Shown: piece by piece, positions 59 to 38,643 of the stretch
How positions within the stretch are numbered: the stretch's first letter is position 1
How the letters are laid out: every line of letters starts with the position of its first letter
From: Torpedo marmorata
Lineage: Eukaryota
Direction: 5' to 3'
Assembly (NCBI GenBank): GCA_977017645.1
Contig: OZ360238.1
Location: 42,966,001-43,030,000, forward strand
DNA length: 64,000 nt
Notes under the pieces: generated by a model
Seen by the model: only the letters and a program-made list of their open reading frames with translations
What the model was told of the DNA's origin: nothing
Databases searched by the model: none
Position numbers and translations under genes: made by a program

Positions 59-2109
59 ATCAAATCAAACATGATCCAATCTGATCCAACCAAACCCAAC
101 ACATGTAATCATGTCCTATCAGGCAGCCAAACTCCATTCCAGACCCTTACTTGCCAGATATCAATATGTCACACAACTGCCACCACTCAAGAATTAAGAT
201 CTTGGCTATTCACATGAGGAGCTTTCACTGAAAGATATTTGGTCTCAACATTATTTTCAATATCCATCTGTCTCTAGTGTGCTTCATTTTTGGCTATCTT
301 CATACACTTATGTAAACATTATTAAAAATCAAACACTACTTTACTTGAGATTTTCAAGAAGATGAAAAGTCACTGGAACTGAATAGCTGGCAAGAGCCAA
401 CTGCAAAATGCAGTGTGTTTGGCAAGATTGCAATGAATCTTTCAGTACTCCATTCCCAGGAGATAGCATCTCTGTGGAGATGTGGAGCATTTAGAGTGTG
501 TTTTGTAAATGTATCCATTTTTGACAATTGCTATGAATACTGTTGCCACAATAATCATTCGTTTCTCTTCCCTCCTGTTTCACCTGTCAGCATGGTGAAA
601 ACAGATTCAATTGTACTTTTGAAGGGGAACTGGATAGGCGCTTGGAAAGAGGAATGATCAGAGAAGTGGGACTGAACGGATAGGTTAGATGGGTTGAGTG
701 ACCTCTTTGTGCAGTGCATGATTTCGTGAAGAGGTGCCAGTTTGTCGAGATAGTCACTCCCTCCAAGATTTGAACATTTTCAAAAAACATATCAGCATCA
801 TTTCCATTTGACTTCATGCTGTCAAATTTGGGTCAGTGTGGGACAATGGTGCATGATGAGCAAAAAGAATGTCTTGGTCATCTTGCACCACCTTCACATT
901 ATTAATGCCCCCCCTCGCAACAACATGTCACTCAGAAGTCTTCTCTTTGAGCCCCACAGACTTTGAACATATTTAAGGTACTAATTCAAAGGGAAATTGT
1001 TGCTCCTGACCTCACTTGACATCCACACGTCTATATTTGGGGGAATCGCTGGATAGTGAACAGAAGTGAGAGCTGATTCTCCCATTCCCAATTTCAGATG
1101 ACTCCAGGCTAATTGTCACTTGCCAAGGACCAGTGAACTCAGCACAGCTTATCAATCAAACCTGAGGCCTGCTTGCTTTGTACAGCTCAGTTAATCATTC
1201 TATAATGTTCACAGAGGTTGTTAAAAGGGGCACTCTCATCTAGTGTATGGTGGCTGCATCATAAAGACCATGCCTTCTGCGCAAGTCTTCAAACCCAAAC
1301 AGGAGGTTAAAAGGATCAGAAATGAGAGTGACTAACTTCAGGGACATTTCCTCAGTCCCAATGTGTTGCAAATTTAACTGAAGTTTTTAGGAGAGAAGGT
1401 TGGCTTTTGATTGTTTGAGGAATTCAGTCAGATGGAATGATGACAGTGCCCCTTAAATGAGGAAAAAGGAGACATACGGTTGCCTGGATGGTGTGGACCA
1501 ATCAAAGCAAACACTGATTCAAAATGCCTTCAAATAGTAATTAACACATTCTAAGGTTTTGAACATTTGCTAATGATGTATAAAATGGCTCACAGCTGAT
1601 AATATGAATATGATTATAAATGTAATTTTGCTCCACCTCCTCTTATATTCCATCTGCTAATTATTTTTCCAGTGAAATGGCACGAGCAATGTTAATAAAG
1701 TCATGCTATGTTGCCTGTTTTCTGGCTTGCAATCTACAGAAGAGTGATAGAAAACAGCCTGACTTGATCATCTTGCTAAGCCAGTTTCCACACTTGCACT
1801 GCAGATGGTATTCTAGATATGCCAGTTATACTTGTAATAGCCTGGAAGTTAAAAACAAACTGTCACAGGAGAATTTTTGCACTCTTTCCTGAATTTATAA
1901 TATCTGAGACACATTTTAAAGGTTCACTCCGCTTTAATTTTGCACTTAATTCTTTTGTCATATTTTCTTTCATTTTACCTGGTTCCTTTTCGAAAGAGGC
2001 ATTATGGTCCATTGGAGGATTCCCAGGCGCACTAAAAACAATAGATAAAGGCTGACATATCAATAGAACCTTTTATGTTGCTTTCATATTGTTCCAAAGT
2101 GTTTTAATT

Positions 2110-2430
2110 CCAATTTTTGAAGCAAGGTCACTGCTGCAGTGTGGGAAATTGCTGCAATTTCCTTAAATATGAAATGTAATACTGAGTAGGTAATCTCTTT
2201 CTAGTGATGTTGAGGGAGGTATAAATTTTGGCCAGAACACTGGGGATGGCATCCTTGTTCTTTGAAATAGTGCCATGGGATCTTTTGAGAGAGCAGTTTA
2301 AAGTCTCATCTGAACTATGGTGTTGCCAACATTTCAGCACTCCTCCAGTATAACCCTTTGGAGTTTTAGAACTTTGCACTCAAGGCTGTAATGTGGGATT
2401 TAAAACCCAAACCTTCTGATTGAAAGCTAC
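2110..2430 (-). mobile_element. Degenerate Deu-domain SINE (SacSINE1/AmnSINE1-like)
   Basis: gaaatagtgccatgggatctttt...gtttaaagtctcatctgaa is the reverse complement of the recalled Deu core (GATGAGAC..AAAC...AAAGATCCCATGGCACT). Confidence 0.6.
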
Positions 2431-4139
2431 TGTTGACCTTTGAGGCTAATCTTCTTTGTGTTTTGTATTTTTTAAGATCAGTTCTTAAATGAAAGGAAGA
2501 AATGAATAAATTGATTCATTTTATACGTTTAGGGATACCATGGAGTTGAATCTCCTGCAATGGTGAGATCTGAACTTGGCCACGGGAGCTTGATGCTCCC
2601 AGTCCTAACATACCTTGGGCAGGGAGGAGAACACATGATGAGCATTCCCCTACTTCTGGCCACTGTCCAGCAATTGCCTGTGGAAAAGTATATGTGGACA
2701 TCAGAATAGGCTGAGATGTCTCCCTCCTTAGTCAGCAATCATGATTGAACAATGGCTTTTAAGAGATGATGTGACCTGCTGCAAAACCACTCCACGTCCT
2801 TGGAATGATTTGGGGAGAAGAGAAAGTGAAATGAACCATTCTAATGCCTAATGGCAGACTTTTCACCATAATCACACTGCTTTTTCCAGAGCCGAACGCA
2901 GACTAGGTAAACTCAAGTGATGGAGAATAGGAAAATAAACACAAAAAAATACCAGCTGAAATCCATGAATGTTCTACCCCCTTGGGTCTGGGCTGTAACC
3001 AGAGTCTGACAAATGACTTGTGAAAGAGAGTGATGAACCCTTATTGTGCAGACACTCTTTAGTTAATCCGAAACCAGATTTCGAGGTAATTTCACATACA
3101 CTAAAAAGATTGATGGCATGGCCTGCCTTGACAGCTTGCAAATGTTTGGGAGGATTGAAAATGGCATTGCAACTTGATTAAGGATGGTGCAGGGCTTCAA
3201 AGAAGTTTCTTCATTCAGTATATCTATCATTTTAATTTGCAAACTGCCTTTACAACAACTTACAGATGTTTGACCCCTGCCAGAGCAGTTACTGCTGCAG
3301 TCAAATGGGAATCACTGTGGGGAAAAAAAGCTTGTGATTCTTGCCACATAATCTTTTGAAATACAGTCAAGATAAACGTGTACCTGCTCCCGAGCATATT
3401 TCTCCTTCAAGTGTAGAGTTCCAGTGTACAGTTAACTCCCAGTCTCATTTATTGAGATGTATAATGTGTGCAAAGCTGGTGCACATATAACATTTCCTCA
3501 CAAATTAATTCATGTCTGTCAAGGATCCAGGTGCATTTTGAGCCATCTGCCACAGTCTTTCAGGAACTTATTTTAAAAAAAGCAAACAAAGGTTTTTCAA
3601 AATGTAACCAGCTGTAACAAGACAAATGTTGCTTTCCAAGCTGTGATTTTTCAGTCGAAAATATTTCTTTGTAATGCATAATTGGAGTGCCAGTGTTCTA
3701 ATTAAATACAGATATTATAGTTATTGAGAGTCAATTCTTTGGTAAAACTACTCCACAGTATCAAGTCTACTGTAAACCCATTAAAAATAGTGCACCATGG
3801 ATTCAAACCAGGGTGGAAACATGTCTGGATTTCACACACAGTTGAGTCCAAAGGAATGCAGTGTAGCTTGGCTCCATGAAGGATACCCACAATCTCCACT
3901 GGCAAGATACCACTGAAGGTTGGAGTTCGAGAATACCCCCACCATACATCAGATATCTGGTCTTGGTTAGTTATTTTTCCTCTTTGAATATTAAACCATA
4001 TCATTCCAAATTCAACACTTAACAAATCTGACCATATTTACTGCATCTCCTGTTGAACAATGAGATAAGAATGCCATGCTAAAGGCAGAATACAATAGAA
4101 TGGATGCTCTTTACAGGCAATGGAGCTCTCTTTTCTTGA

Positions 4140-4486
4140 ACTGTATTCACTAATGTTGTGGGATATGTGGCAATCAAACTTTGCAAAGTAAACTCTCACA
4201 AATGAGAGTGTGATGGAGCCAGATAATCTGTTTCTTTAACTAATTTCAATTGAAGAACATACATTGGTTGGTACACCAGAAATAACTGCCCTTGGTGTTT
4301 TTTTAAAGAGTATGAGGAGATTTATGATTTGAGAGAACAGGTGGGACCTCAGTTTTACACCTAATTGTGGCACCTTCAACAATGCTGCACCCTTCACCAC
4401 TGAGTTGGATTGAAAGTCCAATTGTATTTGCACTTGAAGCCAAACCTTCACACTCAGAGAAGCAAGACTGCTACCAGTGGAGCCAA
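4140..4486 (-). mobile_element. Second, more decayed Deu-domain-like SINE
   Basis: Same order of blocks as 2110-2430 (agataatctgttt, gggacctcagtttta, caccttcaacaatgctgcac, accttc..actcagag). Confidence 0.45.
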
Positions 4487-4885
4487 CATTTACACCATAT
4501 CAGGCTGACAATAGCATTCAATTGTCAGACCAAAGGTACATAAACTACCAGTTCCAGAAAAATTGTTACTTCACTGACAAAGGTTTCTGAGTTTTAGCAT
4601 GGAACACTGCACAGTGACATCATGATATTGTTCACAGCTTCAGCCATCTTTTATTTTTGATAATAATTTCTGTTAGCACAGAAATCAAACAGTAAAACAG
4701 TGCTCCTTTTCACGATAGCAGATATAGCATCTGAAACAGCAGCTGCAGAAATATCCACTGGTGTGAGCATTACCCCACCCAACTTGGTCATCTTAAACAC
4801 AAGCCGAGGTGGAGAGTGTCTGGTGTCTCAAAGGGATTTGCATCTGAGATGGGCATTGGAGCTAACTCTGCAATCTATCTTATTC

Positions 4886-4888
<3 letters not shown>

Positions 4889-4949
<61 letters not shown>

Positions 4950-4960
4950 TACACACACAC
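4889..4960. repeat. (CA)n microsatellite
   Basis: About 36 AC units with two interruptions. Confidence 0.99.
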
Positions 4961-5939
4961 TTTCTCTTTTTTCTCTCTCAAGAAAAAACCAACAAAGTAA
5001 TAAATAGCAGGAATTTTGTTTGCATTTTTGTCGACCTGATGTTGTTTTGCTATCAAATCATGTTTTAAAGGTACATAAGCACACACACTTGCACACATAC
5101 AGCAAAACAGAAGCTCTCCAGAAGGAAATACATTATGTGGTAAAAAAGAGCAGGAATTTAGTTTCAATTTTTTTGCCCTCCCAATCTTGTTTTGCCATAA
5201 ATATTTTTTAAAAGAACATTTTGAGTTTCAAAAATACCCCTCTTGCTTGTGAAATAATGCTTTCCTTCAACTCTTCCTTTTGTATCTCTCACGTGAGGTT
5301 ATATGCCTGTTGCATTGGGGATGGATAGATGGAAGTAGTGCTTTGACATGACCCTTCATCCATTGCGTTATGGGGTACACTTAATCGACCAGCATATCTT
5401 TTAATGCCCATTAATTTTGCCTATTTCATTTTGCATCACAGCTGTTACTTTAGAATATAGGAATCGAATTTTTATGAGTTCCTGGTGTTTTATTTATGCA
5501 TTAAATCATTCCATTATGATTTGAGACATAATGGAAGCAATGGGAAATTGCTGTTGTCTCACTTATGAATAGATTGATACTTGTGTACAATAGTATACAA
5601 TGCCTCTGCAACCCAGAGGTCAGAACCTTGGCAGCTGGAAAGTTTAAATCAATTAATTAATCAGCAATGAAGTAAAATCATAGTACTTGGATGACTAAGA
5701 ACTACTTATGGAGATGCTGGCCTTGCCAACAGTATCCACATAACCGAAATAAATAAATCAATAAATAGAAACAAATGTTACCATTTTGTTCTCACAATAT
5801 TCAATATTCATAAGGGATCATTTTTTTTAATGTGAAATTGCAAGATATTTACGTTCTAGACTTGCCTATTTTGGGCAGATTCTCAGCTGAAATTAAGTTG
5901 GAATTATAGGCTGACCATTAGCTATGGAATCTCAAGCAA

Positions 5940-35710: not shown

Positions 35711-36182
35711 CAGAATCAGAATCAGAATTTATTGTCATGAACAAGTCATGAAATTCGGTGTTTTGCGGCAGCATCATAGTGCAAACATTCATATTATAAC
35801 CATTTTACGACATTGCTATATAAAAAAAAATAGTGTACGAAAAGTAAGGCAGTTCATTGATTATTCAGGAATCTGATGGCAGCGGGGAAGAAGCTATCCT
35901 TGTGCCATTGAGTGCTCGTCTTTAGGCTCCTGTACCTTTTTCCCGATGGAAGCAGAGTGAAGAGGGCATGCTCTGGGTGGTGGGGGTCTTTGAGGACAGA
36001 GGCTGCTTTTTTAAGACACCGCCTCATGTAGAGCTCCTCGATGGAGTGAAGTCTGGTGCCTGTGATGTCACAGGCTGAGTTAACAACCCTCTGGAGTTTA
36101 TTCTTGTCCTGAGAGTTGGTGCCTCCATACCAGGTAATGATGCAACCAGCCAGAATGCTCTCCACGGTACACCTGTAGAATT
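35711..36182 (-). mobile_element. Rex1/Babar-like LINE 3' fragment, (ATTCTG)n family
   Basis: FYRCTVESILAGCI...KDSFFPAAIRFLNNQ. Confidence 0.93.
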
Positions 36183-36446
36183 TTATGAGATATTGTAGGC
36201 TTTCTCTGATGATGTCTTGCATCTCTGATGATGTTGATGTCTGGCATTCGTTCTTACATTTGATCCATCGAGCCATTACTCCTGGATTTAGCTCGTTTTC
36301 TATCATACACTTTTCACCCTGGCTTTGTCCAGCTTTGTAGGTCCTGGCACCTTGCCGACTGGAAAAAATATCATGCCTTTGACTTCAGTTATTTGGGCTC
36401 TTTAATCAAAATAGCTGAGGTAAAGTTTAAAAATAAACCTTCATCT

Positions 36447-37167
36447 TTTTTTTCCAAAAATAAATTTAATTCACCATAAAATATTTACAAAAATGAAAAC
36501 CATTCAATGTCTTTTCACGTCCTTAGTGTCATATGCATACATTTCCATCAAAATACATTGTTACATTTGTTCTCTATTCAGCACCATTGCCATCACTGTG
36601 GAACTTTGTTGTTACCCTCCCCCCACTGTTGTTTGAGGGGTTTCCCCTCGGTCACAGCCCCTCAATGCCCAGTGACAGAAGGACTCGAGACTGTGATCCT
36701 TGTCCACAGCACCCTTGCGTTGGCTGCACCAAGCCTCAGTGCATCCCTCAGCACTGTTAACGTCCTGGAGGTAGTAGATGTCCTTCACCTCAAATTTGAA
36801 GCAGTCCATCAACACTTTCCTGACAAAAAAGTACTGGGAAAATGGGTTCCCTTCACTCATGCCCTTCACCGCCACCGTGACAGTGTTACATATTCTTTGT
36901 CCTCCTGAGGAATTAGTTTTTGTGGCTATCCTTGTGAGACAGGTGGAGGTAGCCTTACAGTGGAAAAAGGCATTAGATTGGTCCCCCAATCAGCATGGAT
37001 CCGCCCCAGCGTCAGCAGGACAGCCCACACCAGACCATCTCTTCCACTCCAACGCTCCTCCCAGGTATCTTTCTCTTCCTTCTTCATGCTACAGCTTCTC
37101 CCAGATCCAGTTGATCGGCTCACAGTGGACGAACTACACTTGATCTTAGCCAAAAGATTGAGAAGCA
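36447..37167 (-). mobile_element. U2 snRNA-headed, internally deleted Tx1 (Keno-like) retroelement
   Basis: 12-bp TSD aaaccttcatct (36435-36446 and 37168-37179); poly(A) end; U2-derived 5' end; ORF1-like NTVTVAVK...FFVRKVLMDCFKFEVKDIYYLQD followed by ORF2-end-like VLRDALRLGAANARVLW. Confidence 0.85.
37133..37166 (-). ncRNA. U2 snRNA 5' fragment (nt 4-37)
   Basis: Minus strand GCTTCTCAATCTTTTGGCTAAGATCAAGTGTAGT versus vertebrate U2 GCTTCTCGGCCTTTTGGCTAAGATCAAGTGTAGT, 31/34 identical. Confidence 0.93.
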
Positions 37168-37227
37168 AAACCTTCATCTGATTCTGGGAAGGTCGGGGTA
37201 AGGCTTGCAATTGTAAAGGAAGATATT

Positions 37228-38643
37228 GCCAGCTGGCTGATGTTCTCACCGACATCTTTAACATCTCCCTGACCAGTGCCGTGGTACCAACGTGCTTCAA
37301 AGCTGCTACCATCATCCCCGTGCCGAAGAAGTCGACGGTGTCCTGCCTCAATGACTACCGCCCTGTCGCACTCACATCCACCGTCATGAAGTGCTTCGAG
37401 AGGCTCGTCATGAGGCACATCAAGCTTCTGCTGCCCCCCTCACTGGACCCCCTGCAGTTTGCATATAGATCAAACCGCTCCAAAGATGATGCCATCATTA
37501 CCACCCTCCACCTAGCCCTCACCAACCTGGAAAATAAGGACGCGAATGTTCGAATGCTGTTTATTGACTTCAGCTCGGCATTCAACACGATCATACCTCA
37601 GTACCTGATAGGGAAGTTGAGGGGGCTGGGCCTAAACTACACCCTCTGTAATTGGATCCTAGACTTCCTGACGGGAAGACCTCAGGCAGTCCGGATTGGA
37701 AACAGCACTTCTAAGGTCATTACATTGAGCACGGGGGCTCCCCAGGGCTGTGTGCTTAGTCCATTGCTGTTCACCCTGCTGACTCAGGACTGTGCAGCAA
37801 AACACAGCTCGAATCAGATCATAAAGTTTGCTGATGATACAACCGTGGTGGGCCTTATCAGTAAGAATGATGAGTCAGCATACAGAGATGAGGTGCAGTC
37901 GCTAATGGAATGGTGTGGAACCAACAACCTGCAGCTGAACGTAAACAAAACAAAAGAGTTGGTTGTTGACTTCAGAAGTGCCCGGGGGGATCATTCTCCA
38001 TTGACCATGGACGGCTCTACCGTTGAGGTCGTAAAGAGTACCAAGTTCCTTGGAGTGCACTTGGCGGAGAGTCTCAGTTGGTCCCTAAACACCAGTTCCA
38101 TAGTCAAGAAAGCCCAGCAACGTCTTTACTTCCTGCGAAGACTGAGGAAAGTTCATCTCCCACCCCCTATCCTTACTACATTCTACAGGGGATGCAGTGA
38201 GAGTATTCTGAGCAATTGCATCACCGCTTGGTTTGGTAACTGTCCCACCTCGGAGCGAAAAACCCTGCAGAGGATAGTGAGGGCAGCGGAGAAAATTATT
38301 GGAGTCTCTCTCTCCACCATGACAGACATTTACAACACACGATGCATGAGGAAGGCTAAAAACATTGTGAAGGACTTCTCACACCCCTTTGGTAAACTGT
38401 TTTCCACTTTGCCATCTGGAAGGAGGTACCGAAGCACTCGGGCTCGCACGTCCAGACTGTGCAACAGTTTTTTCCCCCAAGCCATCAGGCTCCTCAATTC
38501 CTAGATATATATGTGTATTAGCATGTTATAGTTTTTCTATTGTATTATGATACTTATGTACATCTGCCCATGGTCCTGGAGAAACGCTATCTCGTCTTAC
38601 TGTGTATATGGTAATGAACGACAAATAAAGGTGACTTGACTTG
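37228..38643 (+). mobile_element. Young Rex1/Babar-like LINE, 5'-truncated, open RT
   Basis: 407-aa ORF with [37 protein letters not shown]; gtgacttgacttg tail. Confidence 0.96.

Follow-up and report, generated by a model that had tools for sequence, protein, structure and literature searches.

Keno elements, which belong to the Tx1 clade, encode an AP endonuclease and are specific to U2 genes (Kojima and Fujiwara, 2004, as reported in PMC4494074, PMC4640811 and PMC6136364), and their insertion site lies 37 nt into U2 (PMC6136364). The only elements listed as targeting snRNA genes in PMC4640811 are Keno and Utopia, in U2 genes, and Dada, in U1 and U6 genes. The Tx1-Mar LINEs of crocodilians have snRNA-derived heads, from U2 in Tx1-11_Crp and from U1 in Tx1-2_Crp, Tx1-2B_Crp and Tx1-4_AMi (PMC4494074). 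The same source describes SINEU-1, -2 and -3 as short, multi-copy families of ~7,700, 1,058 and 1,600 copies, respectively, mentions Bov-A, HAL1 and Vingi derivatives as internally deleted non-autonomous LINEs, and leaves open both the transcription of SINEU and the origin of its U1 and U2 heads (Kojima, 2015; PMC4494074).

We analyzed a 721-bp unit with a U2 snRNA head in a 64,000-nt stretch of the Torpedo marmorata genome (contig OZ360238.1, positions 42,966,001 to 43,030,000; hereafter "the window", in whose numbering all positions of the unit are given). It is a single member of family A, our name for an old and dispersed Keno/Tx1 LINE family with a length of 5.4 kb.

Structure of the window copy

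The unit lies on the minus strand between the two arms of a 12-bp target-site duplication (TSD), at positions 37168–37179 on the 5′ side of the element and 36435–36446 on the 3′ side. The arms are identical at 12/12 positions, a match with a chance probability of ~5.5e-5 when 25 x 25 (625) boundary offsets are allowed; the duplication starts with AGAT, and the insertion site is a non-U2 site. The element itself opens with U2 snRNA nt 4–37 (37166–37133, minus strand), which agrees at 31/34 positions with the U2 of this genome's own tandem array and ends at the Keno insertion site. This head scores 24.9 bits against the Rfam U2 model (E 0.011), under the gathering score, and Rfam at gathering level finds nothing in the window. 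The head is followed by the family A 5′ leader, or 5′UTR (36930–37132, minus strand), which aligns to L175, a near-complete natural family A copy (5377 nt) that shares this head and tail, and by the first ~58 codons of ORF1 (36755–36929, minus strand), in which Pfam recognizes an RNA-binding domain (RBD_ZCCHC3_1st, E 8.6e-7). The ORF1 piece, whose start codon has decayed to ATA, agrees at 33/50 positions with the ORF1 of L159, a sister copy of full length. Head, leader and ORF1 start together align to L175 positions 12 to 382.

At 36753–36760 (minus strand) the alignment breaks at a private junction where ~4.7 kb, equivalent to L175 positions 382 to 5083, has been removed, with 2-nt GT microhomology at the join and a 6-nt loss directly before it. 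Beyond the join lie the last ~30 codons of ORF2 (36662–36754, minus strand, with the stop at 36662–36664), which align to L175 from 5083 and to L159 from 5171, then a 3′UTR (36454–36661, minus strand), and finally a tail of 7 A (36447–36453, minus strand), read from the sequence. The 3′UTR matches the best family A tail at 84% over 230 nt, can be aligned to tails of the sister family B over only 62 nt, and at 36465–36471 has a motif resembling a poly(A) signal in decayed form. The anatomy given in a preliminary description of this DNA (the TSD, the U2 nt 4–37 head, the leader with a Tx1-type ORF1 start, and the terminal 3′UTR and A-tail) is therefore correct, and the jump to ORF2-terminal codons that it placed near 36760 is real and can now be located more exactly. 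Splicing was considered as the cause of the deletion and rejected: the removed stretch can begin GT but ends AC, not AG.

A 440-codon open frame with RT and an ALKBH8_N-like domain (37182–38504, plus strand) begins right beside the TSD. It is a 5′-truncated LINE of another kind, and a fragment related to it lies at 35854–36384 (minus strand).

Families A and B, and the timing of the deletion

Family A was found by reading onward from U2 heads. A 33-nt head-plus-leader pattern identified 49 places within one mismatch (0 for the reversed control), and the 14:35 ratio of exact to one-mismatch matches gives a hand estimate of ~150–270 headed copies. Family A copies differ from the column majority by ~12%, and a tree of 46 of their 5′ regions, which gives a rough view only because one row is mis-cut, is star-like with end branches of ~0.12. 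Family B is a younger sister family of 5.6 kb, with a head of U2 nt 1–52 and 66 heads within two mismatches. In the sister copy L159, Pfam identifies ZCCHC3-type RNA-binding domains, a zinc knuckle, an AP endonuclease and RT, and family A aligns to this copy at 75–82% across ORF2 DNA; the two-ORF layout of a non-LTR element with AP endonuclease and RT, as in Keno, is thus present. In a protein search, no named Keno or Tx1 entry was among the matches, and the highest identities (53–64%) were those of partial matches in Heterodontus francisci, in keeping with a cartilaginous fish. Some family A copies (L180, L204, L207) have many units of a repeat with a ~42-nt period, which lies in the C-terminal region of ORF1. 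A single family B insertion recurs within shared flanks at three loci (L242, L244 and L261, on C31, C32 and C830), as a segmental duplicate or a haplotig.

The preliminary description had proposed that a deleted master copy inside a U2 gene gave rise to a SINE-like family, transcribed from the U2 promoter and mobilized in trans. We found no such family. Searching the 6.2-Gb genome with the whole 721-nt unit yielded 42 places (best 40 of 5005 candidates), and the matches other than the window copy cover either ~positions 1–409 or 413–721, never both halves in one piece (0/41). A 121-nt query across the junction yielded 40 places (best 40 of 1750 candidates), with the join spanned by 0/39 matches other than the window copy. 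Moreover, the 33 clean deletion junctions among 63 family A copies all differ from one another (33/33), and the nearest relative of the window copy is 18.6% away in the 5′ region. A junction present in one copy alone is the outcome that the preliminary description had itself named as refuting its proposal. The enclosure of head and body by one TSD is what a U2-promoter-driven, non-autonomous mini-element would also present, and very diverged sisters could escape a scoring that covered the best 40 candidates of each search; however, every half-length match would score below a sister that shared the junction, no such sister is among the matches listed, and none of the 33 clean junctions of the family is shared. 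We consider a mini-element family highly improbable. A SINE-like family would consist of numerous copies built on a single short structure, and no full-length LINE would be needed to explain it; here every clean junction is private and full-length headed copies exist (L175, L186, L199, L206). The head belongs to a full-length autonomous family rather than to a mini-element, the 721-bp form has not amplified within the range of the searches, and the window copy itself is an ordinary decayed family member. Two other copies, L179 and L180, have an apparent common junction when aligned on a family B scaffold, in which the window junction is not involved; on a family A scaffold, a repeat-rich stretch of L180 blocks the placing of its junction.

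We counted deletions in 63 family A loci, each of 1.9–9.5 kb, the tail being visible in 29. More than 500 bp of L175 was missing from 24/29 of these head-plus-tail copies, or from 21/26 when three loci too short to show long copies were left out. For family B, 60 loci gave 38 distinct head-plus-tail copies after two segmental duplicates and 20 loci without a tail in range had been dropped. Deletions of more than 500 bp were observed in 0/22 young B copies, defined as ~90% or more identical to L159, and in 6/16 older B copies (Fisher p 0.003). For the deletion rates of young B, older B and A, Fisher p values were 0.003, 0.003 and 9e-10 (the last against family A), in a gradient that partly confounds age with family. 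Within family B, the distance to the nearest neighbour is greater for deleted than for undeleted copies (n = 38, p 0.004), and three of the deleted copies (L245, L246, L252) retain clear TSDs, like the window copy; the TSD control was passed by only 10/28 B copies and 6/29 A copies (7 counting the window copy). Private large deletions thus rise with copy age, indicating that the window deletion likely occurred after insertion. We judge it probable that the window unit is a dead member of a dispersed family of U2-headed, Keno-type LINEs of 5.4 kb, inserted at full length by its own machinery and later shortened, and the deletion may reflect post-insertion repair at the microhomology.

The sizes of the deletions bear on this reading. 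They skew large in family A (18/33 exceed 1.5 kb, and that of the window copy is the largest of the 33), which simple random decay does not predict and which counts against plain post-insertion decay. The skew could be due to selection against long copies, or to a jump during insertion, in which the RT would have copied the 3′ end and then moved to the 5′ part of that RNA or of a different one; the second template could be, for example, a prematurely ended transcript from the U2 promoter. Such a jump is consistent with the one dominant, very large gap of most deleted copies and with the retention of both ends and the TSD, and template switching has been invoked for the heads of SINEU by Kojima (2015; PMC4494074). 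By contrast, the absence of such gaps from the 22 young B copies, as opposed to six of the 16 older copies, is not what a jump at insertion would give, and several family A copies have two or three gaps. A weak concordance between 5′ and 3′ subfamilies (Mantel r 0.20, p 0.04, n = 18) is slightly against the joining of different RNAs but does not speak against a jump within one RNA. We regard a jump during insertion as unlikely, and prefer full-length insertion followed by shortening.

Junctions with snRNA genes and the origin of the heads

This genome has a tandem array of 11 near-identical U2 genes with a 2926-bp period (L093–L094 and L112–L122, on C78), and at the end of the array the A tail of a broken family B copy runs straight into U2 nt 38–191. 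A search with U2 nt 38–191 listed 40 places, and among the 20 examined of 25 further loci, a Keno tail stands in front of the U2 3′ part at five (one B, three A and one without family assignment). Family B tails meet U2 exactly at nt 38 in L307 and L092 and near nt 38 in L216; family A tails precede U2 from nt 39–43, as placed by BLAST, in L316, L321 and L322; and the tail in L308 has no family assigned. Exact patterns combining tail and U2 3′ part matched no family A copy, as expected at ~12% decay, and the DNA search found some. A second, diverged U2 type, ~85% identical to the array gene (L311, L312, L314–L318, L321, L322, L216), has T at nt 38 where this position is visible, and the family A junctions lie in this type. 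The 3′ junction at U2 nt 37/38 is therefore a property of the family and not of the window copy, and the Keno-type body that had been proposed for the unit is supported by family tails standing before the U2 3′ part. None of the headed copies examined (63 A and 60 B) has U2 gene flank on its upstream side. The Keno and Tx1 labels used here are best taken as assignments by junction and domain layout, not by a tree.

Family B is not strictly U2-specific, since it also joins U1. A pattern of an A tail followed by U1 nt 34 onward matched 5 distinct places (control, 0). Four of the five have family B tails (94–99%), joined exactly to U1 nt 34 (L292:1505, L294:1508, L298 and L299, on C5 and C80), and one does not. 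Two of these four loci share the flank behind U1, and three lie on C80, where U1 genes with an upstream octamer are also located (PSE and octamer being names for the motifs upstream of U1). No U1 5′ half was found within 6–8 kb upstream of the four copies. At the other end of the element, stacked U1+U2 heads are present in 13/61 B copies (11 by pattern, plus L159 and L170 with a shorter piece), in which U1 up to nt 46 of this genome's U1 is joined to U2 from ~nt 13; the U1 pieces start at nt 4–14 (11 copies). Rfam U1 scores reach 149 bits on full copies. The B locus L231, on C74, consists of U1 nt 7–46, a full B copy, U1 nt 34–47 and a second Keno 3′ piece within one outer duplication, with U1 nt 34–46 on either side of the full copy; it has the look of a read-through product of a U1 gene that received two insertions. 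In family A, U1 sequence from ~nt 40 stands behind the copy L099. Among well-supported family B TSDs, 7/10 start with AT or GAT (a post hoc comparison; background 0.14, p 7e-5), and both snRNA target sites likewise begin with AT or GAT. In the literature covered, which excludes most subscription papers and Repbase, we found no report of a U1-targeting Tx1 element or other LINE, nor of such elements in cartilaginous fishes.

U1 sequence also occurs in other arrangements. U1 stands in front of the family A copies L050 (to nt 78), L197 (nt 1–21 plus divergent sequence) and L040 (nt 2–21). A U1 pattern search gave 117 matches, and 28 of the 30 loci examined (L262–L291) hold a U1 copy, in most cases with an A-rich tail and with flanks that are unrelated; in L277, copies of U6, U1 and SRP RNA stand in a row, and L272 has U1 followed by a U2 5′ piece.

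We compared 83 U2 heads with the U2 gene. The match starts at nt 1–19, 6/83 heads extend 1–4 nt past nt 1, and agreement with the upstream flank of the gene is near chance; the heads thus begin at or inside nt 1 and lack upstream flank, as expected of promoter-driven transcripts. The match stops at nt 36–37 in family A and at nt 52 in family B. When the family A leader was read as decayed U2 nt 37–52, shuffled sequences did as well in 457/1000 cases. The heads of both families equal the gene over U2 nt 13–36, and the leaders diverge directly after; hence the head looks refreshed from U2. All 63 loci chosen by a 5′-end match carry the head or part of it, in agreement with the earlier suggestion that head and body moved together.

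The accompanying suggestion, co-transcription from an snRNA gene, fits the geometry of the heads, but no master copy stands behind a U2 promoter in the assembly: all matches of the 300-nt U2 upstream region (11/11) are intact array genes, in an assembly where array copies may be collapsed and for a family A that is old. Likewise, no locus has U2 nt 1–52 and U2 nt 38 onward around one copy, so that the corresponding 15-nt duplication in U2 is one that we infer, and it would be longer than the 11–13 nt common elsewhere. In a search of sequencing runs, five DNA runs sharing 0.04 of the words were listed, and no RNA run. Judged from the sequence, promoter borrowing appears likely, if unproven.

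The cycle that we propose starts from insertions that the junctions record: both families entered U2 genes at nt 37/38, and family B entered U1 genes as well, at nt 33/34. A master copy inside an snRNA gene would be read from the snRNA promoter, and its RNA would begin with the first bases of the snRNA. The head would then run to the end of the upstream half of the target, at U2 nt 36–38 in family A, U2 nt 52 in family B and U1 nt 46 in the U1+U2 subfamily. Headed copies stand at many unrelated sites, some with TSDs of 10–17 bp, and may have been dispersed by target-primed reverse transcription with relaxed specificity.

Alternatively, the head could come from a template switch onto free U2 snRNA, or could be a fixed part of the element with an internal promoter. 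Consistent with this, no promoter-linked master is present in the assembly, free U2 and U1 retrocopies are common in this genome, and in L050 and L197 the U2 head is preceded by U1 pieces of different lengths, resembling the recurrent extensions of SINEU-2 (PMC4494074). However, in each family the head stops at a single position, which is the target site or lies beyond it by the length of one TSD, and matching snRNA 3′ halves stand behind the tails. The structure of L231 is what read-through would give if a U1 gene had been hit twice. A fixed head should have drifted together with the leader, but the head did not drift. We consider a switched or fixed head quite unlikely. We think it slightly more likely than not that this Keno lineage targets both U2 nt 37/38 and U1 nt 33/34, lacks a significant promoter of its own and relies on the snRNA promoter of the gene that it enters, such that each passage adds the 5′ end of that gene as a head, first U2 and then U1+U2.

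Comparison with described elements

U1- and U2-headed Tx1 LINEs are already known from crocodilians, and the useful part of the present analysis is the family context rather than the window copy. Like the Tx1-Mar elements, families A and B are dispersed Keno-cluster Tx1 LINEs with 5′ ends derived from U1 or U2. By contrast, the crocodilian LINEs prefer Mariner-N4_AMi, whereas no common flanking repeat was seen upstream of the heads here, and in this genome the snRNA genes themselves have received insertions, which ties the head to the target.

With SINEU, the window copy shares a U2 head, an A tail and Tx1 machinery, and the stacked U1+U2 heads have a parallel in the sister family; the 721-bp form differs in being single-copy and built of LINE coding remnants. 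If true, dual-target promoter borrowing would provide a LINE-based origin and a route of transcription for the U1 and U2 heads of SINEU. One genome shows both halves of a cycle that could make snRNA-headed retroelements, namely tails joined to U2 nt 38 or U1 nt 34 and dispersed progeny with the matching 5′ halves, and a LINE endonuclease with two snRNA targets, together with young copies (~95% alike), makes both the targeting of snRNA genes and the transcription of SINEU testable.

The derivatives of Bov-A, HAL1 and Vingi type similarly combine the 5′ end and the 3′ end of a LINE, but were amplified with one shared junction, whereas here every junction is private. Finally, the families resemble Keno in combining AP endonuclease and RT with a CCHC ORF1, as seen in the sister copy, and in having tails followed by U2 from ~nt 38. 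They differ from it in the position of most copies, which stand outside U2 genes and have a U2 head, and in the additional joining of family B to U1, at nt 34.
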